From NCBI GenBank assembly GCA_035289665.1, contig DATDWO010000043.1:611-64610 (forward strand): DNA of 64,000 nt, in the 5' to 3' direction. How positions within the stretch are numbered: the first letter of the stretch is position 1; every line of letters begins with the position of its first letter. Under the pieces are notes generated by a model, which was not told the DNA's origin, did no database searches, and was given only the letters and a program-made list of their open reading frames with translations. Positions 4,515 to 62,331 of this stretch are shown piece after piece. The DNA is from Candidatus Nanoarchaeia archaeon (GTDB lineage: Archaea; Nanobdellota; Nanobdellia; Woesearchaeales; SM23-78). Both the position numbers and the translations under genes were made by a program.

Positions 4515-5495
4515 TTGAAAACAAAGATATCCCTTATTATCCTCATCGGTTTTCTACTCCTTTCTTCTTGCACAACTAAAAAAGAAAGCGATAAACTTGA
4601 CATCACCCAAGCCTTTATCGGCGGAAACGTAGGCTTAAACGTCTTTTTACTTGAGGGACTGCCTCCCCCCGTTGTTTATGATAAAGGTACTTATCCTTTT
4701 GGCGTGGGCGTCACCATTGAGAATGTAGGTGAAGGCGATGTAGGACCTGGGACACCCAATCCCTTTGTTCGCGTACGTTTGGAAGGCATTAACCCTACTG
4801 AATTTGGCACCACGGATGCAGCGGTTGTCCAAGACCTTGCCGTTCCCTTACGAAGCGCCAAACGAAACTTTGACGGCACCATCCTACCTGGAGAAGTTAC
4901 CACGGCTGTATTTGAGCCTTTGAACTACTTACCTGACCTTCGAGGCAATCATGAATTCACGATTCGCGCTGATGTTTGCTATGATTATACTAACTTAGCA
5001 ACTGCTAAGATCTGCATCAAAGATGAAGTCTTAGAAAACATCCAAGATGACAGCATCTGCAGCTTGGTCGGAGAGAAATTCCCCCAAAACAGTGGTGGAC
5101 CGGTACAGATCACTTCATTAGTAGAAAACCCATTGTCTGACAACAAGATTCAAATCAGCTTTGTCCTTGAACACGTTGGCAAAGGAGAATTTTTCGGCCG
5201 AGACACCAATGAAATCTGCGACTTTAGCGTACGAAACTTCAACAAATATTTCATCGATGTCATCATACGACCCTTGGCTGCGCCTGATTTAGCGGTAAGC
5301 TGCACTCGATTTGGTGGAACCAACCAAGGAAGAATCAAACTCTTCCAAGGAGCCCCAGCTACCATCCAATGCGTTGTTCAACGCACAGGGCCTAGCAAGC
5401 GACGCATCTACCAAGAAATCATGGAAATTGAACTTAGATACCGTTATGGACAGTTCATTGAAACCCCGATCCTCATTCAAGATGTTACTAATTAA
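4515..5495 (+). CDS. Secreted lipoprotein, paralog 1 of tandem pair, unknown function
   Basis: Signal peptide with LLSSC lipobox; shares FIGGNxGL..LEGxPPPV..NVGExxVGP..NPFV..RxNFDGTILPGE..DVCYDYTN..KIC.KD motifs with next gene. Confidence 0.55.
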   Translation: MKTKISLIILIGFLLLSSCTTKKESDKLDITQAFIGGNVGLNVFLLEGLPPPVVYDKGTYPFGVGVTIENVGEGDVGPGTPNPFVRVRLEGINPTEFGTTDAAVVQDLAVPLRSAKRNFDGTILPGEVTTAVFEPLNYLPDLRGNHEFTIRADVCYDYTNLATAKICIKDEVLENIQDDSICSLVGEKFPQNSGGPVQITSLVENPLSDNKIQISFVLEHVGKGEFFGRDTNEICDFSVRNFNKYFIDVIIRPLAAPDLAVSCTRFGGTNQGRIKLFQGAPATIQCVVQRTGPSKRRIYQEIMEIELRYRYGQFIETPILIQDVTN

Positions 5496-5506
5496 CTCTT
5501 CTTATT

Positions 5507-6499
5507 ATGAAATCAAAGACGCTCTGGATCCTTTTGTTCCTTGTTCTCCTTACTTGGTCTTGCAAAAAACAAGACTCGGGAGTTATCCAGCAGACGTTCA
5601 TCGGAGGCAACCAAGGACTTTCTTTTAAGATACTCGAAGGAGCCCCGCCCCCCGTGATTCAAGATGAGGGCAGCAGCCCCTTTTCTGTTTCTACTACCCT
5701 TTCCAATGTCGGTGAGGCTGAAGTGGGACCTGACACCGAAAACCCTTTTGTACTGGTTCGACTCCTTGGGATTGTACCTGCACAATTCGGAACTAAACCT
5801 GAAAACCTCTACCAAACCCTGAGCCACAAACTCAACGGTGCGAGAAGAAACTTTGACGGCACCATCCTACCTGGAGAGATTGAAATCGCCACGTTTGAAC
5901 CCTTGACTTTTTTAGGTAATGTGCTGGAAACGAACGTCATCACCCTGCGACTCGACGTTTGCTACGACTATACCAATTATGCCACTGTGAAAATCTGCTT
6001 GAAAGATGACATCATAGAAAATGCCCAAGATTCCAGCCTTTGCAATTTACGTGATTTGAACCTTCTTGTAGGCAACAGTGCAGGACCTTTACATATCGTA
6101 TCGGCCGATCAAAGCCCTGCTGGATTTGATCGCATCCAAGTCAACCTTGTGGTTGGGCATGTTGGAAGAGGAATGAATTTCCGAAGAGGCACGGAAGACC
6201 CGCAAAAAGCTTGCGACTTTAGTCAACAAAACCGCGACGCGTTCTTTGCTACGCTTAATGTTAAGTATGAAGACCCTCACTTTAAACTCAGCTGTCAAGG
6301 CTTAACTCAACAAGGGCCGGATGGAAGCACCTTTGGCGAGATCCGGTTGTTTGACAATGCTCCCACGACTGTGACGTGCTACTTGAAGCGCGCCGAACCG
6401 ATTAAAAATAGGGTTTATCAAAGCATAATGAATGTGAAAATCAAGTATCGGTACGGGGAGTTTGCCGAGATACCGATTGCGGTACAGGATGTGCATTAG
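5507..6499 (+). CDS. Secreted lipoprotein, paralog 2 of tandem pair, unknown function
   Basis: Signal peptide LTWSC; collinear similarity over full length with 4515..5495. Confidence 0.55.
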   Translation: MKSKTLWILLFLVLLTWSCKKQDSGVIQQTFIGGNQGLSFKILEGAPPPVIQDEGSSPFSVSTTLSNVGEAEVGPDTENPFVLVRLLGIVPAQFGTKPENLYQTLSHKLNGARRNFDGTILPGEIEIATFEPLTFLGNVLETNVITLRLDVCYDYTNYATVKICLKDDIIENAQDSSLCNLRDLNLLVGNSAGPLHIVSADQSPAGFDRIQVNLVVGHVGRGMNFRRGTEDPQKACDFSQQNRDAFFATLNVKYEDPHFKLSCQGLTQQGPDGSTFGEIRLFDNAPTTVTCYLKRAEPIKNRVYQSIMNVKIKYRYGEFAEIPIAVQDVH

Positions 6500-6663
6500 A
6501 ACTTTGAATGACTTTATTTTAGAATTTTAACAATATCCTTACTTGAGAGAATAGGAAGTTTCATAAGAATAAACGAGTAGCGAGAGGAGACATTAACCTT
6601 TCAGCTGCTTTAGGAGCCTTTTCAGGACATTCCTCTAAATAAAGCTCGATCGCATCTTTTATG

Positions 6664-6966
6664 TTATTCAATGCTTCCTCGTAGTTCATGTTTTCTCTTA
6701 CGCACCCGATCCATTAATTCCTTTGTCGAAATCACTTCGCCCCTCTGAACAGCATTAAGCCTTTCCTTAATTATCTCACGAGTTTCATCATTGAGCGGAA
6801 GTTTATCCTCTTGATCATGTTCCACATAATTTTTTATGATCCGCTGTATAACGTTGTCGTAAGGCTCTTGATTAACAAGCTTAAGTTGGTCTAAACACTG
6901 TTTTGTTCCCTCTTTCACTCTTATTTGCTTTGATTCCTCCCCCTCAATCATTTCTTCTTGTTCCAT
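6664..6966 (-). CDS. Ribbon-helix-helix (CopG/Arc-like) DNA-binding protein, candidate regulator/antitoxin; start placed at MEQEEM (ORF extends to 7020)
   Basis: KQIRVKEGTKQCLDQLKLV..YDNVIQRIIKNYVEH fits beta-strand + two helices of RHH; divergent from toxSAS-like gene; shared intergenic region carries operator-like repeats. Confidence 0.45.
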   Translation of the reverse strand: MEQEEMIEGEESKQIRVKEGTKQCLDQLKLVNQEPYDNVIQRIIKNYVEHDQEDKLPLNDETREIIKERLNAVQRGEVISTKELMDRVRKRKHELRGSIE

Positions 6967-7084
6967 AGCCACCCTCTTTTCTGTCAACGCAAGTTGACAG
7001 CAGTAAACTACTGTATACAAAGCGGTTATTTAAACTTTTCGTTTAGATACCGCGCAAATCAGATTAGATATATAATATTTCCAA

Positions 7085-7111
7085 TTTTAAGCTTAAATAT
7101 GACCGCGCAAA
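7085..7111. repeat. 27-bp perfect direct repeat copy 1 (TTTTAAGCTTAAATATGACCGCGCAAA)
   Basis: Identical to 7168..7194. Confidence 0.9.
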
Positions 7112-7167
7112 GTACAAATTTGAAAGACGTACCGCGCAAATTATCATTTATTACTAAATATCTCATG

Positions 7168-7194
7168 TTTTAAGCTTAAATATGACCGCGCAAA
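7168..7194. repeat. 27-bp perfect direct repeat copy 2
   Basis: Identical to 7085..7111; ~40 bp upstream of 7232 start. Confidence 0.9.
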
Positions 7195-7231
7195 AGATAA
7201 GTTTAAATATACATGCTCCTATTCTTACTTC

Positions 7232-8299
7232 ATGGCATGGACAAAACCAGAAGGACACTCTAAGAGAAAAATTGATTTTGCAGGGACTATTCTAACTGGA
7301 GTTAAGAGTTCAGAAGAGAAAGAAGAAGCAATAAAAATATTGAACAATTGGCGAGCCGTTCATAGTTACCCTATGCATATATTCAAAATGAGGCTAAAAA
7401 GAGTATCAGAGAAACTAGATAAAGAATCATTATCTGTTCAGCGCCTTAAACGTGTCCCTTCAATTATTAAAAAATTACAGAGAGGATATCATGGAAACAG
7501 ACCCACTATGAAACTCTCGCAAATGCAAGATATCGCCGGTTGTAGAGTGGTCATGTCAAACGTCTCATTAGCAAAACAACTTTACAAAGATTCTTATATT
7601 AAAGGAGATCTAAAGCATACAAAAGTAAAAGAAAAAGACTACATCGCGAACCCAAAAGAAGACGGATACAGGAGTATTCATCTGATTTATAGGTACAATA
7701 GTGATAAAGAAGGTAAGAAAGAATATAATGGACTACTTGTAGAAGTGCAGATAAGATCAAAGCTACAACATTTATGGGCTACAGCTATAGAGACAGTAGA
7801 TTTTTTTACAAGACAAGCTATTAAGTCTAACGAAGGCGAAAAAGATTGGATGGATTTTTTTAGATTAATGAGCTCAGCATTTGCTATACTAGAAAATTGT
7901 CCATGCGTTCCAAATACTCCCACTGACGAAAAAGAATTGTTCTCTCAAATAAAAACTAAAGAAAGAGAGTTAAACGTTATAAAAATAATGACTGGATGGA
8001 CAAGAGCAATTAGGGTATTTGAGCAAGAAGTAAAAAAGAAATCTGAACTACAGTTTTTCTTATTAGAGCTAGATATTTTAGGAGAAAAGCTAACTATCAG
8101 CGAATATACAAAAGATCAGGAAAAAAAAGCGATAGCAGACTACGCAAAAGCTGAAAAAAGAAATGAAGGAAAAAAAGAATTTGACGTGGTTCTTGTTGGA
8201 GCTGATACAAGCAATGATTTAAAAAAAGCTTATCCGAACTACTTCGTAGATACTGGAGAATTCTTAATAAATCTTAAGAAGATTTTAGATAAGTATTAA
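7232..8299 (+). CDS. RelA/SpoT-family nucleotidyltransferase (small alarmone synthetase fold; toxSAS/CapRel-like single-chain architecture with ~140-aa C-terminal extension)
   Basis: Synthetase-domain motifs: LKRVPSIIKKL..DIAGCRVV..DYIANPKEDGYRSIHL..LLVEVQIRSKLQHLWA; 355 aa. Confidence 0.75.
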   Translation: MAWTKPEGHSKRKIDFAGTILTGVKSSEEKEEAIKILNNWRAVHSYPMHIFKMRLKRVSEKLDKESLSVQRLKRVPSIIKKLQRGYHGNRPTMKLSQMQDIAGCRVVMSNVSLAKQLYKDSYIKGDLKHTKVKEKDYIANPKEDGYRSIHLIYRYNSDKEGKKEYNGLLVEVQIRSKLQHLWATAIETVDFFTRQAIKSNEGEKDWMDFFRLMSSAFAILENCPCVPNTPTDEKELFSQIKTKERELNVIKIMTGWTRAIRVFEQEVKKKSELQFFLLELDILGEKLTISEYTKDQEKKAIADYAKAEKRNEGKKEFDVVLVGADTSNDLKKAYPNYFVDTGEFLINLKKILDKY

Positions 8300-8386
8300 T
8301 TCACAATATTAATAGAAAAGTATTGTGCAGGGTTAATTACTTGAGAATCTTTAAAAAGAGGGTTCAGCCACTTAGAATGTTATGGG

Positions 8387-8689
8387 GTGCTTTTTTTGAA
8401 TCGTCAAGGTTTAGGATATTATACTGAGATCATCGTCGTAAGCCTTATAGCTGTGGTCGTTGTAGGGGCTATCATTGGGGGTTTAGTCTACGTTTTTAAG
8501 ACCGTACCGATGGATTCTCTGCTCTCTATTTTACCCCATACAGAAACAAGAGCACAGCAAAGTACGGTAGCGTCTCCTGCTCATTTAGAAGAGCCTACTC
8601 CACAGCCACCAAAGTATACGCTAGTAGAAACTCCTCCCCCCCCGTACAGGAACCAGAACCTCAACCACAAAATCCACCACCAGTTGTAA
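8387..8689 (+). CDS. N-terminal part (TM anchor + Pro-rich linker) of a membrane-anchored transglutaminase-like protein, interrupted by frameshift at C8 tract (8636..8643)
   Basis: TM helix IIVVSLIAVVVVGAIIGGLVYVF; Pro-rich linker continues in frame +1 after poly-C into next ORF. Confidence 0.5.
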   Translation: MLFLNRQGLGYYTEIIVVSLIAVVVVGAIIGGLVYVFKTVPMDSLLSILPHTETRAQQSTVASPAHLEEPTPQPPKYTLVETPPPPYRNQNLNHKIHHQL

Positions 8690-8790
8690 CCACCCCAGAA
8701 CCACCTCCTAAACCTGTAGATCCAAATGATGCATACGCTAATGTAAAAAGCTATGACTCATACAAAACTGATCCAAAGAGAGTTACCTTC

Positions 8791-9558
8791 TTGTATAAAG
8801 TGAATAGTTCTACTTTCTCATGGGAATATACAGTCTATAAAGGAATTTACGACTATAAAAAAAAACTTGACATGAGTTACCATCTCACACCAAGTGAACA
8901 CCCAACTCAAGAAGAAGTCAACACCAAAATCATAATGAGACAACTTGCTGACCCCATACAATTGAATACTGTCGCCCACATAATACTTTCCTACAGAGAT
9001 CAAATTTTAAAAGAAGGCTGGACTAGAGACCAAACAGCTCGCGCTATAATTTCGCTAGTACAAAGCATCCCTTACGACTCTGAGTCTGTTGAGCAAGGAA
9101 TCATTGTTGGAAGACTACCCTATCAAGTACTTTACGATAACAAAGGTATATGTGAAGAAAAATCGCTTCTTCTTGCACTAATGTTGAAACATCTAGGCTA
9201 TGGTGTGGCGCTACTCAGATTTCCTCAGGAAAACCATATGGCTGTAGGCATTAAATGTCCAAAAGAATATGGCTACGCAGACACAGAATACTGCTTTATT
9301 GAAACAACCTCTCCAGCTTTTATAACTGATGCAGATGCAGAGTATGCGGGAGGTGTAAAGCTCACCAACAAGCCAGAAGTCATAGTCATATCGGAAGGGG
9401 AGACATATACAGATTTGTCAAATGAATTATCTGATCTTGCCACTTGGCGTACACTTTGGGCTAAAGATGATGATACTGCGAGTTGGCAAGATTGTGATAC
9501 AATAAATAAACTAGCCGAGAAATATGGACTCAAATCTAACTGTAAAAGAGGATTCTAA
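8791..9558 (+). CDS. Transglutaminase-like (papain-fold) putative cysteine protease domain; likely C-terminal part of 8387.. gene
   Basis: GICEEKSLLLALMLKHLGYGVALLRF...NHMAVGIK resembles transglutaminase-like Cys/His core; upstream frame open through Pro-rich linker back to the C8 tract. Confidence 0.5.
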   Translation: MYKVNSSTFSWEYTVYKGIYDYKKKLDMSYHLTPSEHPTQEEVNTKIIMRQLADPIQLNTVAHIILSYRDQILKEGWTRDQTARAIISLVQSIPYDSESVEQGIIVGRLPYQVLYDNKGICEEKSLLLALMLKHLGYGVALLRFPQENHMAVGIKCPKEYGYADTEYCFIETTSPAFITDADAEYAGGVKLTNKPEVIVISEGETYTDLSNELSDLATWRTLWAKDDDTASWQDCDTINKLAEKYGLKSNCKRGF

Positions 9559-9668
9559 TTAATGTGCAAAACTCCTTTATTCATGTGCAGCTTAGTATTT
9601 ATGTGCAAAGCTAAAGGAAGGAAAAGCTTTATAAATACTTTCGCCTTCTTTGAGTAGTAACATACATA

Positions 9669-14867: not shown

Positions 14868-15043
14868 CTTTATACCTTTTACATTTTATCTTCCCTTGGA
14901 TTTTCATACAGATCGCCTTGTTAACTATTATTTACTAACAAAATTTTTTTGGTTAAACCAAATTTTGGGAGTTCCAAAAATTTACTACTACTTATTATTT
15001 ATTGTAAATTTTTGTTAACGATCTGTAAATTATTATTAACTAT

Positions 15044-15295
15044 TTAAATGTTTTCCTTTGTCTTACTCTCACGATAAACCACTTGAACTCCTTTCTCTTC
15101 TAGTCGTTGAACCGCTGTTTGATACGCCTCCCCTGAACCTTGGTATTGACCAAACAACCCTTCTGTGTACTTCATCGGAATCACTCTGAATCCTGCTTCT
15201 TCTACCCTCTTAATTGCTTCTTCCTTTGTCAGCTCATCGTATTCAAAACGAACCTTTCTGTCTAAACTCATCCTAACCTCAACTCCTGCACCCAT
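15044..15295 (-). CDS. Small acidic protein, last gene of GC-rich cassette
   Basis: 83 aa; overlaps subtilase gene end; no domain recognised. Confidence 0.4.
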   Translation of the reverse strand: MGAGVEVRMSLDRKVRFEYDELTKEEAIKRVEEAGFRVIPMKYTEGLFGQYQGSGEAYQTAVQRLEEKGVQVVYRESKTKENI

Positions 15296-16497
15296 TCTTG
15301 TTGGCTTGCTTTTCCACTGACTAATTTGTCTGCCCTCACCAAACCCACCCCATACTTTTTTCGATTCTCTGGATCCAAACTTGATCCTAACTCGTCTGCT
15401 GAAGACTTCAAACGCTCCTCTAACTCTTTGGGTGAGCCTTGTTTAACTGATTTACCTAATGCGAGGCTCCCAGTTACATGAGGGGTCGCCATGCTTGTCC
15501 CTGAGAATTCCTGATAACCCCCAGGGACAGAAGAATAGATGCTCACTCCCGGAGCAGAGATGTCATTGGTCTCATAAATATTGCTAAACTCAGCGTGCTC
15601 GTTGTTACGATCCACCGCTGCTACGGCAACCACATTGTTCAATGCTGCGGGATAGCTCGGACCATAATATTCGTTCCCAGCTGCCGCCACTACAGTGATT
15701 CCTCGCTTTACGGCCTCTTGAATTACTTGATCCTCAAAATAGGAATATTGGGAACTCCCCAGGCTCATGTTGATAACTTCCATCTTATTATCGATGGCCC
15801 ACTCAATCCCCCGTAACACATCTGCTTCACTCCCATACCCTTCATCACTTAATACTTTTATTGCATATAAACTACACGCTGGAGCAACCCCTGTTTCCTC
15901 TCCAGCGACGGTACCGGCTACATGCGTTCCATGCCCATTCCCATCATAAGGATCTGCGTTATCCTCTACAAAATTATATCCCTTATTTCCCCCAAAGCGA
16001 TTTTTTACTTCTTCATGAGTGTAATCCACGCCAGTATCGATGATCCCTACTTTCACGCCCTTTCCCTGCGTTGTTTTGTTAGCTATGTCTGCACCGATGT
16101 TGTTCAAATTCCATGCACTCCCTGGTCGGCTGTTTAACTTTACTGAAACTGGAAAGCCGCCTTGAATCAACTCCGGAATGTACAAAACCCTTGCCGGAGA
16201 AATATGGCCTGCCCAAGACAGGCGTTGCTTTAGATAAGAACAGATTTTTTCCTCCTCTCTTCCCCCACACTCCACAGCAACAAAAGGGACATACTTGAAT
16301 GAGTAACTGGGTAGTTTCAACTCTTTCTCCAATGCTTCCCGACCTTTTTCTGAACAGATACCTCTTCCTCGGATCTGAACTAAAACCCGAGATCTCTTCT
16401 TTTCTATCTTTTCCACCCATTTATCTTTCTCTGGGGTTTTTTTCTCTGTGAATATCTCCTTAAACAACTTCCTTGCAAACTGACTTCGATAGCTCAA
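15268..16497 (-). CDS. Subtilisin-like serine protease (peptidase S8) with I9-like propeptide and no signal peptide
   Basis: Catalytic triad motifs GIIDTGVD, HGTHVAGT, GTSMATPHV; N-terminus hydrophilic (MSYRSQFARKLFKE...). Confidence 0.85.
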   Translation of the reverse strand: MSYRSQFARKLFKEIFTEKKTPEKDKWVEKIEKKRSRVLVQIRGRGICSEKGREALEKELKLPSYSFKYVPFVAVECGGREEEKICSYLKQRLSWAGHISPARVLYIPELIQGGFPVSVKLNSRPGSAWNLNNIGADIANKTTQGKGVKVGIIDTGVDYTHEEVKNRFGGNKGYNFVEDNADPYDGNGHGTHVAGTVAGEETGVAPACSLYAIKVLSDEGYGSEADVLRGIEWAIDNKMEVINMSLGSSQYSYFEDQVIQEAVKRGITVVAAAGNEYYGPSYPAALNNVVAVAAVDRNNEHAEFSNIYETNDISAPGVSIYSSVPGGYQEFSGTSMATPHVTGSLALGKSVKQGSPKELEERLKSSADELGSSLDPENRKKYGVGLVRADKLVSGKASQQEWVQELRLG

Positions 16498-17888
16498 ACG
16501 CCCACCCCCACGTTCTCCCTTAAGGTGTCGTACGATTCCAGTACCTCTAAGAAATCAGCCTCTTTCGGTAGTTCGTAATGATCCCTGTCTAAATCCCTTC
16601 GAAAGCAGGCTTCAAATGCACGATTCACAATTTCTGCTACATCTGCTCCTACCAGCCTAGGTTTACCTGCTTGCTCTAACTCCTCTGATTTTCTCGCTAA
16701 CCCTTTAACCAATACTCTGAAATCTTCTTCGCTCCCTCCTTCTCCCACCCTTCTGAAACGCTTTTCCCAATGAATCTGAGCGACTTCCTCTAGTTCAATC
16801 GGACCTGGATAATGAAACGGAATGATCTTTGAAAAACGATGTGGCGAGCGCAACTTTTTATCTATACACTTTATTTCATTAGTGGCTCCTACATACAATG
16901 TGAAGTTATTTTCTTCGGTTTCACACATCTTTAACGCTAAAATATTGGTTACATTTACCCCGATGTCGGAATGTACCCACTCTCGGTTCCGACCGATCGA
17001 GTCTATTTCATCCAGGAAGAAAACCCGGTCTTTACCTGATAAGACTTGCTCCAATTGCCTTTCGGTCTCTCCTGCCCACTTACTCAAAAAATCCGTTAAA
17101 TGCACTTCTACAAATTCGCAATCCAACTCGGATGCTAAAACTCTGGCTAGTAAGGTTTTTCCTGTACCTGAGGGGCCGTAAAACAAAAGACCTCTAGGAA
17201 ATGAGTACCCCCAACGTTCGCACTTCTTTACGCTTCTATACGCCTTGATCAGGTAATTCACTTCCTCCTTTGCCTCTCGATTGCCCCCTACCTCTGCCAA
17301 AGAAACCTTTGCGTGGTTTGGGCGAACTCTATATGTAGAAAATCCATCATATCGAAGCCCTTCGTATGAAAGACTAAGATCCTTTACCCTTTCTAACAAC
17401 GGCTTATACGCCTCTTTCGAACCCTCTGATTCTGCACGCTCTGCTACCCACAACAAAAATCCTCTCCCATAATCAAAAACCCTTTCTGAGGAAACTTGGC
17501 TTACCATCCCCTGCGCTTCACGCGCCAGTTCCTTAGCCAGTACTTGGGCTGAGCTGTCAAAATAAATAGGGAACTTTCTTCCCATGCCTACTCCTTGCCC
17601 TCCCATGAGCTCAGCTGGAGCCAGTCGCTCCAATTCGTTTAAACCCGCTTTTGCAGCTACATACAAGCTTTGTGCGTTCAAAAATGCAGACCTTCCTTTG
17701 TCATTGCCTTCTACACTCCCCTCTAATGCTTGGTGAGCTGCATCGTATACTCCTAAAAAGCGCGCACTGACTTCCAGCACATTTCTTTGCTCGCTGGTTA
17801 ACCCTTTACCATCCTCCGTCAGTTTACGTTGATATACTCCGACATGAGCTTCTACCTTCTTAGGATTCAGCTGTACCATATTCCTCAC
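16494..17888 (-). CDS. AAA+ ATPase (classic AAA clade) with ~200-aa unrecognised N-terminal domain
   Basis: Walker A GPSGTGKT, Walker B FFLDEIDSIG, SRH-like VGATNEIKCIDKKLRSPHRF; 4-bp overlaps with both neighbours. Confidence 0.8.
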   Translation of the reverse strand: MRNMVQLNPKKVEAHVGVYQRKLTEDGKGLTSEQRNVLEVSARFLGVYDAAHQALEGSVEGNDKGRSAFLNAQSLYVAAKAGLNELERLAPAELMGGQGVGMGRKFPIYFDSSAQVLAKELAREAQGMVSQVSSERVFDYGRGFLLWVAERAESEGSKEAYKPLLERVKDLSLSYEGLRYDGFSTYRVRPNHAKVSLAEVGGNREAKEEVNYLIKAYRSVKKCERWGYSFPRGLLFYGPSGTGKTLLARVLASELDCEFVEVHLTDFLSKWAGETERQLEQVLSGKDRVFFLDEIDSIGRNREWVHSDIGVNVTNILALKMCETEENNFTLYVGATNEIKCIDKKLRSPHRFSKIIPFHYPGPIELEEVAQIHWEKRFRRVGEGGSEEDFRVLVKGLARKSEELEQAGKPRLVGADVAEIVNRAFEACFRRDLDRDHYELPKEADFLEVLESYDTLRENVGVGV

Positions 17889-18913
17889 CGGCTACGACGC
17901 TCTTCTTCCAAGATCCTATCTGCCAAATCCTCCAGCTGGTTATCAAACAACCTTCCCTTCTGCTTTAATTCCCTCATTCTCCGGTCTGAACGCGGACTGT
18001 ACGAGAAGCTTTCTTCTGGAAGATTCAATGCTGCTTGCAACCCCTCCAATTGAATGCTTGAGGCTGCCTCTGCAAAATGCCCTGCTTCTTGCGTTACTTG
18101 AGTCGTTTCCCTCAACACTTCCATTGTACCTACCGGATCCAACCCATTCTGCGCAACGCCTGCTAACCTCGTTTCTAGTAAACGGTTTGCTAAGTACTTT
18201 TGACGCAAAGCCTTCATGTACAGGTCCAACTTTGCCTTGTTGTGTTCCAAACCCTGAACTTGGTGATGGTAACCCACCAAACACCCTGTGGCTGCAGACC
18301 TTTCCTCCAACACTTTACTCATGTCTGCTTCGTAATCCTCCAATTCCTCTTCAGCCCGATCCAATTCGTCCATCGCTCGATGGTCTTCCGGGCTCTTAGC
18401 CAAATTCTGACGAATGGACGCTGTTCGCTCTGACAACTCTTGCTCCTTCTCCACTAAACTTGCTTCCATAGCACTGTACTGGCTTCGTAATTTCATCGCC
18501 CCCCGCTTCAGCTTCTTTTTTTCTCGCAACTTATCCCGCGTGTCCTCAACCATTCCTTCATACTTATTCAGCCGATACTCCAATGCTTTTTTTGCCTGGT
18601 CCACTGCTCGTTGCTGCCTCTTAACCCGATAATCAAATGAAGTAACTCCTAGCAACTTATCGGCTAACCTATACACAAAACGAACAGGCTTAGACAAGTG
18701 TTCGCGGCCAATCTCATTCAAACGCCGCTCCTGTTCCTGCAAATCCTTAATGGCGGCTTCGTATATATCCAATTCACTTGAGTCTCCAGACAAAATGACT
18801 CTTTTTGTACGCTCATCCACATCCGAAGACTGATATGAACTCATCATCTCCTTCATGGAATCTGACTTGTATCTTGCTCTCAACTTAATCACCCCCCTTA
18901 GAAACCCAATCAA
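17885..18913 (-). CDS. Coiled-coil protein (342 aa), unknown function
   Basis: Long heptad-like charged/helical sequence (EQELSERTASIRQNLAKSPEDHRAMDELDRAEEELEDYE...). Confidence 0.55.
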   Translation of the reverse strand: MIGFLRGVIKLRARYKSDSMKEMMSSYQSSDVDERTKRVILSGDSSELDIYEAAIKDLQEQERRLNEIGREHLSKPVRFVYRLADKLLGVTSFDYRVKRQQRAVDQAKKALEYRLNKYEGMVEDTRDKLREKKKLKRGAMKLRSQYSAMEASLVEKEQELSERTASIRQNLAKSPEDHRAMDELDRAEEELEDYEADMSKVLEERSAATGCLVGYHHQVQGLEHNKAKLDLYMKALRQKYLANRLLETRLAGVAQNGLDPVGTMEVLRETTQVTQEAGHFAEAASSIQLEGLQAALNLPEESFSYSPRSDRRMRELKQKGRLFDNQLEDLADRILEEERRSR

Positions 18914-19289
18914 AACGTTCCTTCAACCCATCTTGCCTTATTGCATATTCATGGCCACTGCGCAACTGAACCAGCGCATAATCTTTCCCCTTGTCTTCTG
19001 CCCATATCAGGCGTACGTCTTTTGGGTGAATAAAACCCTCCAACGTTGGGTGGTGACGATGTGCACGACTCTTCAATCCATGCAACTCATCTGCCTCTTT
19101 GTCGGTCAAACTTTCGTACTTTGTTGGCCTACTTGCTATTTCCCTGTTTAGCCGGTATGCTAATGTTTCTGGTTTTTCCACACACCCCCTAAACGCCCAC
19201 CCTCCGTAAATTAAGATGATTGCTGTTGCTAGACTCCGGATAGGGTGCGAAAGCAACCCCCTCCTTGGCCGCGGATAATATTCTCTCAT
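18885..19289 (-). CDS. Small membrane protein
   Basis: Hydrophobic segment LATAIILIYGGWAFRG; coupled within cassette. Confidence 0.45.
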   Translation of the reverse strand: MREYYPRPRRGLLSHPIRSLATAIILIYGGWAFRGCVEKPETLAYRLNREIASRPTKYESLTDKEADELHGLKSRAHRHHPTLEGFIHPKDVRLIWAEDKGKDYALVQLRSGHEYAIRQDGLKERFDWVSKGGD

Positions 19290-19912
19290 TCTTCATCCCC
19301 CCTCAATGCCCAATCCCCTGCATCTTTCAATGAATGACGCACGTCCTCATACGCATTTGACAATAACTTCTTCGCCACCGAACCTGGATGATCCAACAAA
19401 CATTGCTCTGCAACTGCAACCCGCGTATTCACTTCTGAACTTCTATACAACTCCAGCAAAAGCTCTCGCTGAGCTTCCTCCCCTAAGTTGCCAAAGCCCT
19501 GAGAAACAACATACTGTGTGTCTTTTTCGCTTAATCTATTGCTTTCAATGCCCCTCTTCGCTAACTCCCCTAACCATCCCTGATCTTGAACCAGATAACC
19601 TTCCACTCCATGCAACAAACGAGCTCTCCTCTCCACTGAACTGTGTTCCAATACCTTAGACACCACTTGATCCAAGAAGGGTCCTTGCCACTCCACTCCT
19701 TTTGAATCATCCATACTTTTTACCAAACCCTCTGCTGCTTGCTCAGGTGTTTGATTCCACGAAAAAGACATGTACTCCAAACCCTTATTCCCCTGCGCGT
19801 CTTCTAGACGAACCCAATTTTTACTGTACACTAGAGCTGCTGCACCTGCCAGAACAGCACCGACTGTTACCAACTTAAATCGCAAAAACCTTTTTTGAGC
19901 ATCCATCATCAT
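19286..19912 (-). CDS. Membrane-anchored protein (N-terminal TM/signal anchor), first gene of cassette
   Basis: LVTVGAVLAGAAALVY hydrophobic N-terminus; 4-bp overlap with next gene. Confidence 0.5.
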   Translation of the reverse strand: MMMDAQKRFLRFKLVTVGAVLAGAAALVYSKNWVRLEDAQGNKGLEYMSFSWNQTPEQAAEGLVKSMDDSKGVEWQGPFLDQVVSKVLEHSSVERRARLLHGVEGYLVQDQGWLGELAKRGIESNRLSEKDTQYVVSQGFGNLGEEAQRELLLELYRSSEVNTRVAVAEQCLLDHPGSVAKKLLSNAYEDVRHSLKDAGDWALRGDEE

Positions 19913-20025
19913 CCACCTCTAGAAAACACAATACGCCTGAACTATAAGAAAAATAGGTGTACAAAAAAGGACACCACGTATTTATATAGTCTTAATATAG
20001 AAGGAGCCACGAAATTTATTAAAAA

Positions 20026-20424
20026 TTATTCGATCAAAAACTCATGAATACTCGCGTTGGCGAACTCTCTGCGCTCTTTTTGAGGAAACACTTGATGCAT
20101 GTAATACATGACCCCTGCATGCCCTACGATTAAGATTGTCTTTCCGTTGTATTCTGATTTAAGACCCTCTATCAATTCTTTTACACGTTTTTTCATGTCT
20201 TCCTCGGATTCTCCTCCATAGGTTCTGACATCCACCGTTTTTAACTGTTCGCCTATGTCTGATTTCGTTTTGTCCAGTCCCGGAAGGTCGTTTATCTTCC
20301 ATCCGGCCAATCTTCCGAAATCCCTTTCTTTTAATGAGTCTTTGTATATGATTGGTACCTTTCGGTATTTTGCGATGATTTCAGCTGATTGCGCTGCGCG
20401 CTTTAAGGGTGATGAAAGGATCAC
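20026..20424 (-). pseudogene. Histidine phosphatase (phosphoglycerate mutase family) fragment lacking the N-terminal RHG catalytic motif
   Basis: Begins at the ...SSPLKRAAQSAEII segment; ends with GHAGVMYY; no upstream in-frame RHG; inverted repeats immediately upstream. Confidence 0.4.
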
Positions 20425-34505: not shown

Positions 34506-34683
34506 TGCGGGGGAAGGGATTCGAACCCTCGCACCCACTAAGGGACTACCCGTTTGATTGCGCTTGAATGAGACGAGCTTTGCTCGCCAACATTTTTACA
34601 GCGGCTTGAACCGCTGAATGTCGAAAAGCTTCGCTTTCCGACTCCTCAAGGTAGCGCATTTGACCAGGCTCTGCCACCCCCGC
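34506..34683 (-). tRNA. tRNA-Leu(GAG) with ~90-nt intron in anticodon loop
   Basis: 5' GCGGGGGUGGCAGAGCCUGGUCAAAUGCG-CUACC-UUGAGG..., 3' GGUAG + long variable arm + GAGGG-UUCGAAU-CCCUU-CCCCCGC-A; acceptor pairs perfectly. Confidence 0.6.
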
Positions 34684-57102: not shown

Positions 57103-57219
57103 ATTACCACTTATTCTACTAAGTAGTAAAGGTGGTATTTAAAGATTGCGGTAATACAGTGTTTACCTTAGAATATTCTCGGCAGCTTTTTAAATTATTA
57201 GCGCTTATCCAAGCTTGTA

Positions 57220-57673
57220 GGACCGCCCTTAGCTGTCGGTGAATGTAGCTTTACACCTTAACTGGTTGAAGATGCCTTTGCTGAGGAAAGTCCGCCCACA
57301 CCTCGCAAGAGGAAGCAGTTCCTCATGGAAATGAGATCCTGAAAAGGATGGCAACCACTCCGAAACGAGACCCCCAACGTGCAGGATGAAAGTCATGAAG
57401 TTCCAGGCGACTGGAATAAGTTAATTGGCTGACGTTGCGTTGCCCACAGAAGCTTTGGCTTCTGGGGCGCTAGAAAGCTTAGCTTTCTATGCGGAATGGA
57501 TGAAACGGTGAGCCCGAACTTGTGCAAGTCTGTTACAGACGCTCAGTAGAATGCTAAGACATCCATCGGTGTTTCTTTTAGAAATGTGCTCAGAAATCAA
57601 TGATTTCTGGCACGCGAGCAAGCAACACTTGCTCTGCGCTTTGGGATGCACAAAAGGCGGCTTATACCGGTCC
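57220..57673 (+). ncRNA. rnpB: RNase P RNA
   Basis: ORF-free GC-rich stretch; GAGGAAAGUCCGCCCACA (CR-I/P4 5' strand) and ACAAAAGGCGGCUUAUACCGGUCC (P4 3' strand/P1 closing) with P1 GGACCG...CGGUCC pairing. Confidence 0.7.
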
Positions 57674-58240
57674 TACACTTTTTAAACTTAAAACGATCTG
57701 ATCTAAATTGATTTCTGGAGTGTGACGTCCAAAATTCCTTTTTACACGCTCAGATACAGAAAGCGACCTTCTTTTTCCTGTTTCTCCCCCTAATAATCGG
57801 GTCAGTTTTTCACTACGCCTAAGCTGAGGACTTGCCTTTACCACAAAAATCGCGATTGAAGGAGCGAATTCACAAAATTGTTGGTGAACCAAATCGATCC
57901 ATAACCCTCGTTCACTGTCGAAGTTCCAGCTATGTCGTGTTTTGCCTGGATCATAAAACCCGGCTACTTCTTGAAGAGGCGTTAGCTGAGCTACAATATA
58001 GGAAGCGGCATCACACAAACTATAAGGAAACCCTGGAAGGCCCATCATCTCGTCATATGCGCGTTCCAATCTTCGGTAATAAGGAAGCTCTGCTATGACT
58101 TCATTAGGAAGTAAACCTTGTTGCCATTCAGGAATCATTCTATAGGTTCTTGGCGCAAGTTTTTTAAACGCTACGGTTTTTCTACTTATCATGGCGAAAG
58201 ACAACCGCATTACTCTGCCCAGTTCAGGCGCAGGCATCAC
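57662..58240 (-). CDS. Hypothetical protein, GC-rich
   Basis: 192-aa ORF; no domain recognised; 3' end abuts RNase P RNA. Confidence 0.4.
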   Translation of the reverse strand: MMPAPELGRVMRLSFAMISRKTVAFKKLAPRTYRMIPEWQQGLLPNEVIAELPYYRRLERAYDEMMGLPGFPYSLCDAASYIVAQLTPLQEVAGFYDPGKTRHSWNFDSERGLWIDLVHQQFCEFAPSIAIFVVKASPQLRRSEKLTRLLGGETGKRRSLSVSERVKRNFGRHTPEINLDQIVLSLKSVGPV

Positions 58241-59500: not shown

Positions 59501-60979
59501 ATGAGGTGGACGATCTGGCGGATGTTACTGGCTGTTCTTGTACTTAGCGTCTTTATCTTTCGCCTCTGGCTTGCCTTTCAAACCCCTAGTTTTTCGTATG
59601 ACGCTTATTTTCACCTTCGACAAATTGAATCGATCAGTGAAACCGGAAAACCTCTTTTTAATGACCCACTTAGCTATCAAGGAAGAACCTACGTGTTTGC
59701 CCCTCTCTTTTACTATGTCCTTGCCTTCTTCTCTAAATTAATTTCCACTGAAATGGTTGCCAAGATTATTCCTAACCTATTCTTTTCTATTAGTATTCTC
59801 TTAGTCTATCTCATTGTATTGAGACGCGCTAAAAAAGAATGGGCAGCCTTGCTTGCTGCTTTTTTCACTGCACTCATCCCTCAATCCTATGCCTATCTCA
59901 TCAATGTAAGCCCGGTTTCCCTTGCCATTCCTCTCGGATTGTTTATGATCTATTGTCTCATGGATCTGGACAATAAAAAAAATGTTTATTATGCCATCCT
60001 CTGTGCTGTTTTCCTTACTTTAACTCATGCCTTGATTTTTTTATTTGTATTTGGATTCATCCTTTATTTTTGCCTCCTTGCCTTACTAAAACATCCTAGA
60101 AGTTCTAAAGAGGTAGAATTCACTCTTTTCTTGTTCTTCCTTGCCGCTTGGTTTAACTTTATACTCTATAAGAAAGCCTTTCTTGCCCAAGGCCTATTCT
60201 TTCTCTGGCAGAATGTTCCTGCCCCTCTTCGCGCCGAGATTTTTGGCGAGGCCACTTTCCTTACTGCTCTTTATGCCATCAATTTCATTCCCTTTCTTTT
60301 TGGTATTTATACAGTATATCATACTCTTGTTGTCCGCGAAACCACCCAGTATTTTTTATTCGTAGGACTTGTTTTAGGCGTATGCACCCTATTGCTTTTT
60401 AGTTGGATTCAAATCAACACAGGCCTCTTATTCTTAGGATACTTCGTAGTTATCCTCAGCAGCCGAACTTTCCTCCTATTTGTACGATACATTAAAAAAA
60501 CAAAGTTTCCTAGATTAGCCTATTCCTCCCTCGTTGCACTCTTCATCCTCTTCATCCTCACCACTTTTTTACCTATGTTCTTAACGGCCAGCCATCACTT
60601 GAAGGACACTCCTCAACCCGACCAGGTCGCTGCTTTCCAATGGATTCGTAACCATGCCCTTCTTGAAGCCACCGTGTTAGCGGCTGTAAAAGAAGGACAA
60701 GCTTTAAGCTATTACACTCACCGCAAAAACATCATTGACACAAACTTATTCCTTGCTCATGACATTCACCAACGATACAGTGACTTAACTAAAATCTACA
60801 CCAGCCGATTCCAATCAACTGCCTTACAGAAAATAAACCAATACCACATCAACTACATCTACTTCTCTAATGAATCCGTCCACACTTACGGAGTACAACA
60901 ACTCTATTTTACCGATAACCCTTGTTTTAGACTTCTTTACGAAAAAGGCGTTCAAATCTATGGGGTGATTTGCGCATGA
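59501..60979 (+). CDS. Polytopic membrane protein, GT-C-fold glycosyltransferase-like (PMT/ArnT/DUF2079-like), paralog 1
   Basis: ~12 TM helices with large C-terminal soluble domain; similar architecture to next gene. Confidence 0.4.
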   Translation: MRWTIWRMLLAVLVLSVFIFRLWLAFQTPSFSYDAYFHLRQIESISETGKPLFNDPLSYQGRTYVFAPLFYYVLAFFSKLISTEMVAKIIPNLFFSISILLVYLIVLRRAKKEWAALLAAFFTALIPQSYAYLINVSPVSLAIPLGLFMIYCLMDLDNKKNVYYAILCAVFLTLTHALIFLFVFGFILYFCLLALLKHPRSSKEVEFTLFLFFLAAWFNFILYKKAFLAQGLFFLWQNVPAPLRAEIFGEATFLTALYAINFIPFLFGIYTVYHTLVVRETTQYFLFVGLVLGVCTLLLFSWIQINTGLLFLGYFVVILSSRTFLLFVRYIKKTKFPRLAYSSLVALFILFILTTFLPMFLTASHHLKDTPQPDQVAAFQWIRNHALLEATVLAAVKEGQALSYYTHRKNIIDTNLFLAHDIHQRYSDLTKIYTSRFQSTALQKINQYHINYIYFSNESVHTYGVQQLYFTDNPCFRLLYEKGVQIYGVICA

Positions 60980-62331
60980 AAACCAAATATGTTTTCCTCA
61001 CCCTTTTTCTGGCTGCGCTTTTGATCTTGATATCTCTTCTTGCTTTGAGGCATTTCAATCACTACCCGACCCTGCACTCACCTGAAGCGTACACCCACTT
61101 ACGCATCGCACAATTAATCCATGAAAATGGGATCCTCCAATTTGACTCCCTTCTCAAACAACATTATACCTTTAACCTTTATGATTACCTTATCGCTGGA
61201 CTTTCACTCCTAGCTCCATTGTCACTACTCAGTTTATTGATTCCTCTGTTAATAGGTGTTGCGGTTGCGTTTCTTTTCTATCAAATCCTAATCAAATATT
61301 GCAACTCAGAGCGGACTTTTTACATCTTGTTTTTCTTCCTCCTCTCGCCTGCTTACCTATATAGTTTTACTACTCTAACCTCATTGGGCTTTATTGCTTT
61401 CCTCGCCCTACTTGGCTTTTGGCTCTTCCTCAAACAAAAAATGATCTGGGCTTATTTAACCTGGGCTTTACTTGTCCTCACTAGTTGGGTTGCCTTTATC
61501 ACGATTTGCCTCCTATTCCTTTGGTATCTTTACACTTATGAAAAAAATAAGATTCAATCTGCCCTTCACCTCTTTAGTTTAGGATTCCTTTTTTGGATTT
61601 TACTCATTGTCACTCATCCCTTTAATTTTCAAGATCAACTCCTACCCTTCCAATTAGGGCTTCGTTATTACCTCACTGACTTCGGAGCTATGGTTGGCTA
61701 CTCTTTTGTGACTTTTATCTTATGCCTTATCTGGCTTTTTAAATATTGGAATAAAAAACCTTTAGTGTTACTCCTGGTTTTCTTACTGTCTGCCATTAAC
61801 CTGCCCACCCGCATTTTGATGTCTTTTATGCTTTCCATTGGAGCCGGCCTTTATGTAGCCAACCTCTCTGAACGCAATTGGCAGCTCTCGCTCCTTAAAC
61901 AATTAACCCTTCTTCTCATCGGTTGCCTTATTCTTTTCTCCGCCCTCTCCTACATGCACCGTTTGGTTCAATCTCCCCCAGAACTCTCTCTTCAAAAAGC
62001 CCTTGAAAAACTCTCTTATGAAGAGAAAGGAGCTGTTTTAACTTCGCCTGAATATAGTAGCTTTACTGCTTATTTTGCCCATCAATCCCTGGCTAACCTC
62101 TCTCAACAAGACCTCTCTACGATCTACCATTCTCAGCGCCTTGACCTCACCAAAAAGATACTGGATCAATACGACGTGCGGTACATCCTTATTACTCCTT
62201 CCATGCGAAACGGCGGTGTTTGGAATGCCCCTAACCAAGGACTCCTTCTCCTACTCCCCTTCAGCGAAAGTTTTATTAAGCGAAACGCAGTCGATGATAT
62301 TGAAATTTGGCAGTACAGGGGGGGCTCATGA
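60970..62331 (+). CDS. Polytopic membrane protein, GT-C-fold glycosyltransferase-like, paralog 2
   Basis: 10-nt overlap with previous gene; same architecture. Confidence 0.4.
   Translation: MRMKTKYVFLTLFLAALLILISLLALRHFNHYPTLHSPEAYTHLRIAQLIHENGILQFDSLLKQHYTFNLYDYLIAGLSLLAPLSLLSLLIPLLIGVAVAFLFYQILIKYCNSERTFYILFFFLLSPAYLYSFTTLTSLGFIAFLALLGFWLFLKQKMIWAYLTWALLVLTSWVAFITICLLFLWYLYTYEKNKIQSALHLFSLGFLFWILLIVTHPFNFQDQLLPFQLGLRYYLTDFGAMVGYSFVTFILCLIWLFKYWNKKPLVLLLVFLLSAINLPTRILMSFMLSIGAGLYVANLSERNWQLSLLKQLTLLLIGCLILFSALSYMHRLVQSPPELSLQKALEKLSYEEKGAVLTSPEYSSFTAYFAHQSLANLSQQDLSTIYHSQRLDLTKKILDQYDVRYILITPSMRNGGVWNAPNQGLLLLLPFSESFIKRNAVDDIEIWQYRGGS

Follow-up and report, generated by a model that had tools for sequence, protein, structure and literature searches.

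A fast-evolving six-gene operon of a DPANN archaeon that appears to join a coiled-coil/AAA+ module to a leaderless S8 protease

We analyzed a 64 000-nucleotide stretch of a Candidatus Nanoarchaeia archaeon genome (contig DATDWO010000043.1 of assembly GCA_035289665.1, positions 611 to 64 610; hereafter the window, in whose numbering all window positions are given), focusing on six consecutive minus-strand open reading frames (ORFs) that span positions 15044-19912. This cassette is a chromosomal, vertically inherited and fast-evolving operon of a DPANN archaeon, and its sequence features indicate an origin from two modules that became joined. Module A consists of two membrane-associated proteins (genes 1 and 2), a coiled-coil protein named here after its YKS motif (gene 3) and an AAA+ ATPase with a fold-orphan N-terminal domain (gene 4), and module B consists of a signal-less, pro-subtilisin-like S8 protease (gene 5) followed by a small ORF (gene 6). 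We tentatively suggest that the ATPase gates the protease.

A six-gene operon without a described counterpart

All six ORFs listed in an initial annotation of the window were present. As that annotation had proposed, they are predicted to form one compact, co-transcribed and translationally coupled operon, given the tight gene junctions, the TATA-like and Shine–Dalgarno-like elements upstream, the oligo-T runs downstream and the conservation of gene order in four other loci. The 113-bp intergenic region upstream of the cassette (19913..20025, minus strand), which follows a His_Phos_1 remnant, is a putative promoter in which sequence inspection found TATA-like AT-rich elements (TATATAAA at 19981-19988 and TTTTTCTTATA at 19943-19953) and a Shine–Dalgarno-like GAGGTGG at 19913-19919 ahead of gene 1. 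At the other end, an AT-rich region (14940..15043, minus strand) with oligo-T runs at 14976-14980 and 14940-14943 is likely to be the end of the transcription unit and may act as a terminator.

Genes 1, 2, 3 and 6 had no match in Pfam, NCBIfam, PADLOC or PDB families and no assignment in PHROG, where matches of cassette-type proteins were confined to generic AAA and P-loop families. With four of the six proteins and the N-terminal domain of the ATPase lacking a family assignment, the six-gene combination appears to correspond to no described system, as had been suspected at the outset.

Gene starts were refined by ortholog alignments and independent gene calls. Gene 1, the first gene of the operon, is tentatively assigned to the third ATG (19906) behind GAGGTGG, giving a product of 206 aa, and gene 2 (134 aa) starts at 19289 with an ATGA overlap with gene 1. 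The start of gene 3 (332 aa) is TTG 18883, which leaves a 1-nt spacer where its orthologs have 4-bp overlaps. Gene 4 starts either at GTG 17888 (464 aa, GTGA overlap) or, more likely, at ATG 17879 (461 aa, 5-nt spacer), the latter being favored by the orthologs and a Shine–Dalgarno-like GGTGAGG. Gene 5 (409 aa) starts at TTG 16497 with a TTGA overlap with the AAA stop (ATGA in locus L008), and gene 6 (75 aa) starts at ATG 15271 with an ATGA overlap at 15268-15271 with the S8 stop. Among the overlaps initially annotated, those at 19286-19289 (ATGA) and 16494-16497 (TTGA) are real and agree with the orthologs, and the one at 17885-17888 can exist as GTGA but gives way to the spacer if ATG 17879 is used. 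The longer ones at 18885-18913 and 15268-15295 are artefacts of taking the longest ORF. Three lineages retain the AAA/S8 stop-start overlap with a varying start codon (TTGA, TTGA and ATGA). Since a 4-bp overlap is also possible in 6/36 other same-strand gene pairs of the window, the chain of overlaps represents ordinary operon packing and nothing exceptional.

Conservation and divergence of the locus

The cassette recurs in about five related DPANN (‘Nanoarchaeota’) lineages. The same gene order was found in four other loci from other aquifers, namely L004 and L010 (‘Nanoarchaeota archaeon H51-bin340_1’), L007 and L008, and the six genes were kept together in every sufficiently long contig. 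In L004, L007 and L008 the chromosomal site is also shared, lying between ThiI/ODC/Metallophos and CysRS. When metagenomes were scanned with the close coiled-coil alignment, the known Hainich contig was the sole match.

Between these genomes, the cassette proteins were 53-73% identical at the amino-acid level compared with 81-89% for the flanking housekeeping proteins, and the N-terminal domain of the ATPase was only 40% identical. The least diverged cassette genes were S8 (73%) and gene 6 (60%, compared with L004). The nonsynonymous substitution rate (dN) was 0.24-0.42 for the cassette and 0.065-0.13 for the flanks, so that the cassette dN was 3-4 times that of the flanking housekeeping genes; its ratio to the synonymous rate (dN/dS) was well below 1 where computable, although only the dN comparisons are meaningful because dS was saturated. 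The shared site, the contrast in identity and dN and the low dN/dS together indicate that the locus is vertically inherited under purifying selection and evolves fast, which makes it a clear example of a conserved chromosomal locus evolving 3-4 times faster than its neighbors.

The divergence was also mosaic. Gene 3 was 91% identical between L007 and L008, whereas genes 1, 2 and 4 were 72-74% identical, and L004, L007 and L008 were equidistant for genes 1 and 2 but not for genes 3 and 4, a pattern pointing to intra-cassette recombination or marked heterogeneity in rate.

The window sequence itself was identical to a Rifle aquifer metagenome scaffold.

Base composition

The cassette had initially been described as visibly GC-richer than its surroundings (~50% versus 38-40%) and, on that ground, as possibly acquired horizontally. 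Neither statement was supported. Windowed GC content and per-gene values revealed no contrast, with a GC content of 0.464 for the cassette genes and 0.437±0.029 for the other window genes, and a GC content at third codon positions (GC3) of 0.449 and 0.442, respectively. Both values were within about one standard deviation of the other genes, which rules out a GC or codon island, and the undeviating composition and the same chromosomal position in related genomes speak against horizontal acquisition. The only measures that deviated were the coding-strand GC skew (0.33 versus 0.05±0.13 elsewhere in the window) and the purine content (0.61 versus 0.53 for the other window genes), an excess that would reflect charged proteins rich in Glu, Lys, Arg and Gly. 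The impression of a GC-rich island probably arose from the purine- and G-rich codons of charged proteins rather than from foreign DNA, and calls for caution. No relative of gene 3 was found in IMG/VR or a phage collection; together with the generic nature of the PHROG matches and the absence of a BFVD match for the N-terminal domain of the ATPase, this led us to reject viral or mobile carriage.

The AAA+ ATPase and the coiled-coil protein

Gene 4 combines an N-terminal domain of ~200 aa (17289..17888, minus strand) with a classic-clade AAA+ module (16494..17288, minus strand). The module matched PF00004 at residues 234-359 of 464 aa with 96.6 bits (cut-off 21.2) and retains the complete classic-clade motif set with two Arg in the second region of homology (SRH) and an aromatic pore loop, in agreement with its initial classification. 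The motifs are Walker A (GPSGTGKT, 17154-17177), the pore loop (SKWAGE, 17067-17084), Walker B (FFLDEID, 17001-17021), sensor-1 (GATNE, 16875-16889), the SRH with Arg fingers (SPHRFS, 16830-16847) and a C-terminal VGVGV (16497-16514), and the set is conserved in the close orthologs. The best NCBIfam match of gene 4 was CDC48, followed by FtsH and PAN, and its closest PDB chains were VAT/CDC48.

The N-terminal domain carries the motifs FLNAQSLY, IDF and LNG..GF and was modeled by AlphaFold2 (AF2) as six helices with a small beta element that are specific to this family (pLDDT 85.5, pTM 0.85). A structure search with this model gave no MIT, CDC48-N or OB match, and BFVD contained none at E ≤ 0.001 (best 0.85). 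According to the model, the domain is a fold-orphan helical bundle and not of the MIT, CDC48-N or PAN type, which bears out the initial remark that it was not obviously MIT- or PAN-like. The AAA module of gene 4 is thus nearest to VAT/CDC48/NVL/AFG2 and shares with archaeal CDC48/VAT the Walker A and B motifs, the aromatic pore loop and the two SRH Arg, but gene 4 differs in having a single AAA domain without the D1-D2 tandem and, in place of the double-psi-barrel N-terminal domain, a helical bundle without structural match. A Deinococcus plasmid ATPase that covered 91% of gene 4 was uninformative because it stands alone among unrelated neighbors.

Gene 3 (17885..18883, minus strand; start assigned by orthologs) had been annotated as a 342-aa coiled-coil protein, of which the coiled-coil nature stood and the length was corrected to 332 aa by the TTG start. 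It contains conserved N-terminal motifs, a long antiparallel helical hairpin at residues 82-246 and a C-terminal acidic helix (LEDLADRILEEE). In the AF2 model, pLDDT was 65 overall and ~90 in the hairpin, so that the model is confident only for residues 82-246. The best 50 Foldseek matches were generic coiled-coil hairpins (SMC arms, chemoreceptors/MCP, EnvC and RipA-N; E≥1.9e-3), Pfam scans of 17 family members gave coiled-coil noise with no Snf7 or PspA_IM30 among the matches listed, and PDB profile searches with gene 3 returned no ESCRT-III or PspA chain. A word-indexed search of 5.8 billion proteins found five clusters only in the close family of gene 3, and an exhaustive search with hidden Markov models (HMMs) added 12 distant relatives of 315-344 aa (E 6e-12 to 1e-3) with the common motifs YKS, ERExIL, YRxxDxxG[IL][TS]SP and LKRDA..KY.

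Five of the distant gene 3 loci were sampled for their gene context. An AAA gene lies directly after the gene 3 relative in 4/5 of them (L016, L018, L019 and L021) and is absent in L020. The N-terminal domains of these AAA proteins align over their full length with that of gene 4, including the invariant F69 and G182, IDF and LNG..GF. The pair can accordingly be recognized by a protein of ~315-345 aa with the four motifs above and a partner AAA protein with the N-terminal signature FxNxxSLY ... LNGxxxxGF, both of which were found. From these sequence signatures, the YKS coiled-coil protein and the AAA+ protein with a helical N-terminal domain constitute a new, previously undescribed two-protein family.

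The gene that follows the AAA gene varied. It encodes an S8 protease in the clade of the window only. In L016 (4315-4968) and L019 (7732-8958) the following genes encode homologous P-loop NTPases (E 1.6e-13) with matches to DUF5906 and phrog_12057, and in L018 and L021 they encode unrelated proteins.

Some further features of these loci were observed. Upstream in L016 there is also a gene with a faint resemblance to Mrr_cat. In L019, the coiled-coil gene is preceded by a 178-aa gene (4860-5396) that on visual inspection resembles a truncated duplicate of it, and the AAA gene (6442-7763) is split into ORFs of 271 and 166 aa, which suggests a frameshift or decay.

The membrane-associated proteins

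Gene 1 (19286..19912, minus strand) is an ORF of 208 aa whose protein is anchored at its N-terminus, as initially annotated: the ortholog alignment defines an invariant cytoplasmic tail MDAQKRFLRFKL and a hydrophobic segment at residues ~9-30, and the anchor is clear (KD19 1.78). A helical C-terminal domain with a conserved DAGDW near the C-terminus follows. Gene 2 (18885..19289, minus strand) has a short hydrophobic segment ending in an invariant GWAFRGC and then a conserved domain of ~90 aa (HRHHP...GHEY.IR). It had been described as a small transmembrane protein, and a hydrophobic segment is indeed present, but with a KD19 of only 1.40 it is borderline for a helix and its transmembrane nature is uncertain. 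By the positive-inside rule, the topology is N-in/C-out for gene 1 and perhaps for gene 2.

In the distant coiled-coil/AAA+ loci, HMM searches for genes 1 and 2 detected no homologs. Other small proteins with a hydrophobic N-terminus precede the coiled-coil gene at L018 7730-7972, L020 188-445 and L016 180-401, as gene 2 does in the window (18885-19289). In 3/4 loci, the hydrophobic segment is closed by a small residue and then Cys (ISSC, ANGC and FRGC); such a Cys is missing from the L018 protein (L018_80), which is homologous to that of L020 (L020_85; E 5e-12). The small residue-Cys end is a candidate lipobox-like or anchoring motif.

The S8 protease and the small downstream protein

Gene 5 (15268..16497, minus strand) encodes a leaderless S8 subtilase that matched Peptidase_S8 (PF00082) at residues 145-385 of 409 with 185.7 bits. 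The catalytic triad is intact, as previously noted, with D154 (DTGVD, 16024-16038), H189 (HGTHVAG, 15913-15933) and S335 (GTSMATPH, 15478-15501) complemented by the oxyanion residue N275 (AAAGNE, 15670-15687), and these D/H/N/S residues are conserved across the S8 family alignment. The closest PDB chains were Savinase, subtilisin E and BPN' (E≈1e-50), with intracellular subtilisins (ISPs) at about 1e-42. The reported lack of a secretion signal was likewise substantiated, in that no hydrophobic segments were found in gene 5 and an N-terminal hydrophobic run was found in 0/113 S8 family members. For the I9-like propeptide of the initial annotation, support was borderline. The N-terminal extension of ~128 aa, with ARVLYIPEL at 16168-16194, is a possible I9-like prodomain with a weak match to the Tk-subtilisin propeptide, but Pfam Inhibitor_I9 had no match in nine S8 members at E≤1.

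Beyond the three cassette orthologs, many of the closest S8 matches (42-53% identical, covering 65-99% of the query) carry Woesearchaeota or Nanoarchaeota annotations, and the N-terminal extension aligns in 6/6 such relatives examined. Gene 5 resembles true subtilisins, ISPs and Tk-subtilisin (MEROPS S8A, I9 prodomain) in its catalytic domain and D/H/N/S residues. It differs from this group in having no signal peptide and a prodomain match of only E≈0.1, and in being a member of a leaderless family found across DPANN archaea, in which a small ORF trails the S8 gene.

Gene 6 (15044..15271, minus strand), supported by a gene call and an ortholog, had been described as an acidic protein of 83 aa but is 75 aa long with a net charge of -1. 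We rejected the idea that it is a trans-acting I9-like inhibitor akin to the S8 prodomain, for which hhalign gave probabilities of 2% and 0.4%.

In three loci with more distant archaeal S8 genes, L011 (1-9961), L012 (7001-8598) and L014 (7001-8613), an ORF of 84-103 aa directly follows each S8 gene. Their contexts contained no cassette-type AAA, gene 3-like protein or homolog of genes 1 and 2, and the AAA genes near these S8 genes were LonB and RFC only, on the opposite strand. Comparison of the small ORFs with gene 6 by MAFFT and BLAST gave nothing significant and only a weak KYTEGLFG/KSTEGLY resemblance. A leaderless pro-S8 and a small ORF thus define a recurrent pair, also present beside these three more distant Woesearchaeota-like S8 genes. 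In L011, the pair is part of an array of genes on one strand that also encodes a PP2C phosphatase, a Ser/Thr kinase and two coiled-coil proteins, of which one has a transmembrane segment.

Functional interpretation

By analogy with the IetAS systems, we tentatively propose that the AAA+ ATPase gates the S8 protease in a conflict-related role. The protease would be the effector and the AAA+ hexamer the gate that restrains, or licenses, a potentially toxic intracellular protease, possibly by using its intact pore loop to act on either the inhibitory N-terminal prodomain or the product of gene 6. Gene 3 would supply an adaptor or scaffold, and genes 1 and 2 would hold the complex at the membrane or pass on a signal from there, with the invariant cytoplasmic tail of gene 1 as a candidate docking peptide. 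The role could be toxin-antitoxin-like, abortive-infection-like or part of a host/virus interaction.

In IetAS, an AAA-ATPase antitoxin lies upstream of an S8 toxin in an anti-phage system of unknown mechanism, and IetAS-type modules recruit accessory genes, for example in ietHAS (PMC13069673). In the Mycoplasma pair A132/T133, found in minimal-genome hosts, an AAA-ATPase antitoxin is likewise encoded upstream of an S8 toxin (T133) of 757 aa (PMC8562856). The cassette shares with IetA/IetS (also IteA/IteS) and A132/T133 an AAA gene placed directly upstream of a signal-less S8 gene in one operon, and the highest-scoring PADLOC model was IetA both for gene 4 (68.8 bits) and for the three AAA proteins scanned from the distant loci. 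These are the best precedents for the ATPase-gated protease that the initial annotation had suggested for a conflict cassette. That suggestion, with which the fast divergence and the exchange of downstream genes also agree, is kept here as a proposal.

Several observations weigh against the gating proposal. The PADLOC IetA match covers only profile positions 94-264/374, the generic AAA core, and the curated equivalog models scored far below their cut-offs (IteA, NF042959, 55.8 bits versus 510; IteS, NF042956, 19.1 bits versus 900). Membership in the IetAS family was rejected on this basis and because the architecture differs: the IetS/IteS profiles have 747-826 positions and T133 has 757 aa, whereas gene 5 has 409 aa with a prodomain-like N-terminus; gene 4 has a unique helical N-terminal domain of 200 aa; the cassette has four additional genes (two for membrane-associated proteins, one for a coiled-coil protein and one for a small protein); and it is chromosomal, syntenic and archaeal. 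As for the target of the gate, the best natural PDB match of the N-terminal profile of gene 5, the Tk-subtilisin propeptide in the expected register, is weak (E≈0.09-0.1), and a similarity between gene 6 and the prodomain is unsupported (hhalign probability 2%). The S8 family usually occurs without an ATPase, so the adjacency of AAA and S8 could be secondary. The fast divergence would fit surface or host-interaction proteins as well, the cassette lies in a stable housekeeping neighborhood with no obvious defense island, and it is absent from viral contigs. Finally, with five distant loci sampled, the idea of variable effectors draws on few cases.

A further reading, which we regard as possible but doubtful, builds on that idea: the conserved unit, instead of being the AAA-S8 pair, would be a membrane-coupled sensor or switch, composed of a small hydrophobic-N protein, the YKS coiled-coil protein and the AAA+ ATPase with its fold-orphan N-terminal domain, that works with interchangeable effectors and represents a new modular class of conflict or defense systems in DPANN archaea. 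The ATPase would then license a toxic effector, namely the S8 protease in the window, the DUF5906-like P-loop NTPase at the L016 and L019 loci and other proteins at L018 and L021.

Among the other explanations considered, an unlikely one is a maturation, anchoring or export route in which the AAA+ and coiled-coil proteins chaperone the leaderless pro-subtilase, genes 1 and 2 form the membrane part and the protease works outside, where it would help an episymbiotic DPANN archaeon to scavenge nutrients or to interact with host cells. The catalytic domain is indeed closest to secreted true subtilisins (Savinase and BPN', E at 1e-50), although ISPs are also among the PDB matches, and the prodomain-like extension, the N-in/C-out topology of gene 1 and perhaps gene 2, and a fast divergence typical of surface-exposed proteins would all suit export. 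However, a signal-like segment occurs in 0/113 family members, most members have the same leaderless design without any AAA or membrane module, and the cassette has no translocase-like polytopic membrane protein. Quite unlikely, too, is that the modules are independent and merely share a transcript, the S8 gene and small ORF having landed downstream in an ancestor of the clade and been kept as passengers. Each module does exist separately elsewhere, 4-bp overlaps are common in this window and divergence within the cassette is lowest for S8 and gene 6; yet the AAA/S8 overlap has been maintained in three lineages despite the change of start codon, every contig of sufficient length has kept the six genes as a set, and S8 also outpaces the flanks (dN 0.24 versus ~0.1).

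The initial annotation had also raised regulated proteolysis or membrane remodeling of the PAN or ESCRT/Vps4 type, a form of the idea that finds no support in the missing Snf7/PspA match of gene 3 and the missing MIT, CDC48-N or OB match of gene 4. We consider it improbable that the ATPase unfolds membrane-selected substrates and feeds them to the subtilase as in ClpXP or the PAN-proteasome. A classic-clade AAA+ with an intact SKWAGE pore loop and Arg fingers, translationally coupled to a protease gene and ending in a conserved VGVGV that could be a docking element, would be suited to such a machine, but subtilisins are monomeric endopeptidases with an open active site and no gated chamber, which leaves substrate feeding without a structural rationale. 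Furthermore, gene 4 has no HbYX motif or CC-OB N-terminal domain, the coiled-coil/AAA+ pair also occurs with non-protease partners, and the S8 family is normally ATPase-independent. PAN itself was rejected by the helical-bundle N-terminal domain, the C-terminus ...NVGVGV without HbYX and a TIGR01242 score of 76 bits against a cut-off of 500. Very improbable, and largely refuted, is an ESCRT-III/Vps4-like (Cdv-like) system in which gene 3 polymerizes, gene 4 disassembles the polymer and the subtilase is merely adjacent. The cassette does resemble ESCRT-III/Vps4 (CdvB/CdvC) and PspA/Vipp1 in having a helical-hairpin gene directly upstream of a classic-clade AAA+ gene with membrane proteins in the same operon; the gene 4 pore loop SKWAGETER is similar to SKWMGESEK of Vps4, and by sequence inspection the C-terminal acidic helix of gene 3 contains a loosely MIM1-like LxxRI. 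Against this, gene 3 has neither a Snf7/PspA sequence match among the Pfam hits listed for 17 members or the PDB profiles nor a fold match beyond generic Foldseek hairpins, its hairpin helices of ~80 residues are much longer than those of ESCRT-III, gene 4 lacks an MIT domain, and its NCBIfam CdvC score (65 bits, cut-off 650) falls below those of CDC48, FtsH and PAN.

A further comparison was made with the type VII secretion system (T7SS), which also combines an AAA protein, EccA, with a subtilase, mycosin. Mycosin was the best NCBIfam model for the S8 protease (157.7 bits, cut-off 278.75), and gene 4 matched EccA weakly (50.1 bits, cut-off 466.65). We rejected this assignment, as both scores are below the cut-offs and the PDB similarity is to true subtilisins and not to mycosins; gene 5 also differs from mycosin in having no signal peptide or C-terminal anchor, and no EccC (FtsK-type), EccB, EccD or WXG100 was found among the genes called around the cassette.

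To our knowledge, little of the defense and conflict repertoire of DPANN archaea has been charted. If the AAA+ ATPase does gate the subtilase, the operon would extend the ATPase-antitoxin/protease-toxin logic of IetAS from bacteria to ultrasmall DPANN archaea, and its coiled-coil and membrane components could reveal how such systems sense their trigger.

Other features of the window

Just upstream of the putative cassette promoter, the His_Phos_1 ORF (20026-20424, minus strand) matches only profile positions 48-175/194 and therefore has the appearance of a remnant that has lost its N-terminus. Between ThiI and the cassette the genomes differ, and L004 has a GDSL lipase and a hydrolase in this interval.

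Two other regions of the window stood out in composition. Positions 7001-9600 are its lowest-GC part (GC 0.33-0.37) and encode a RelA_SpoT-domain protein (7232-8299, GC3 0.26) and a weak transglutaminase-like protein (8791-9558), so that a foreign origin is more plausible for this region than for the cassette. At 59501-62331 on the plus strand, two overlapping genes, one of them PMT_2-like, have a C-rich coding strand with a GC skew of about -0.28 and a purine content of 0.38-0.39, the compositional extreme opposite to the cassette.

Two RNA genes were also detected. A match to Rfam tRNA at 34506-34683 (minus strand) extends over 178 nt compared with the 71 positions of the model and is probably an intron-containing archaeal tRNA, where ARAGORN reported none. 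An archaeal RNase P RNA match at 57217-57676 (plus strand), which identifies the window as archaeal, is 460 nt long on a model of 288 positions, indicating large insertions.

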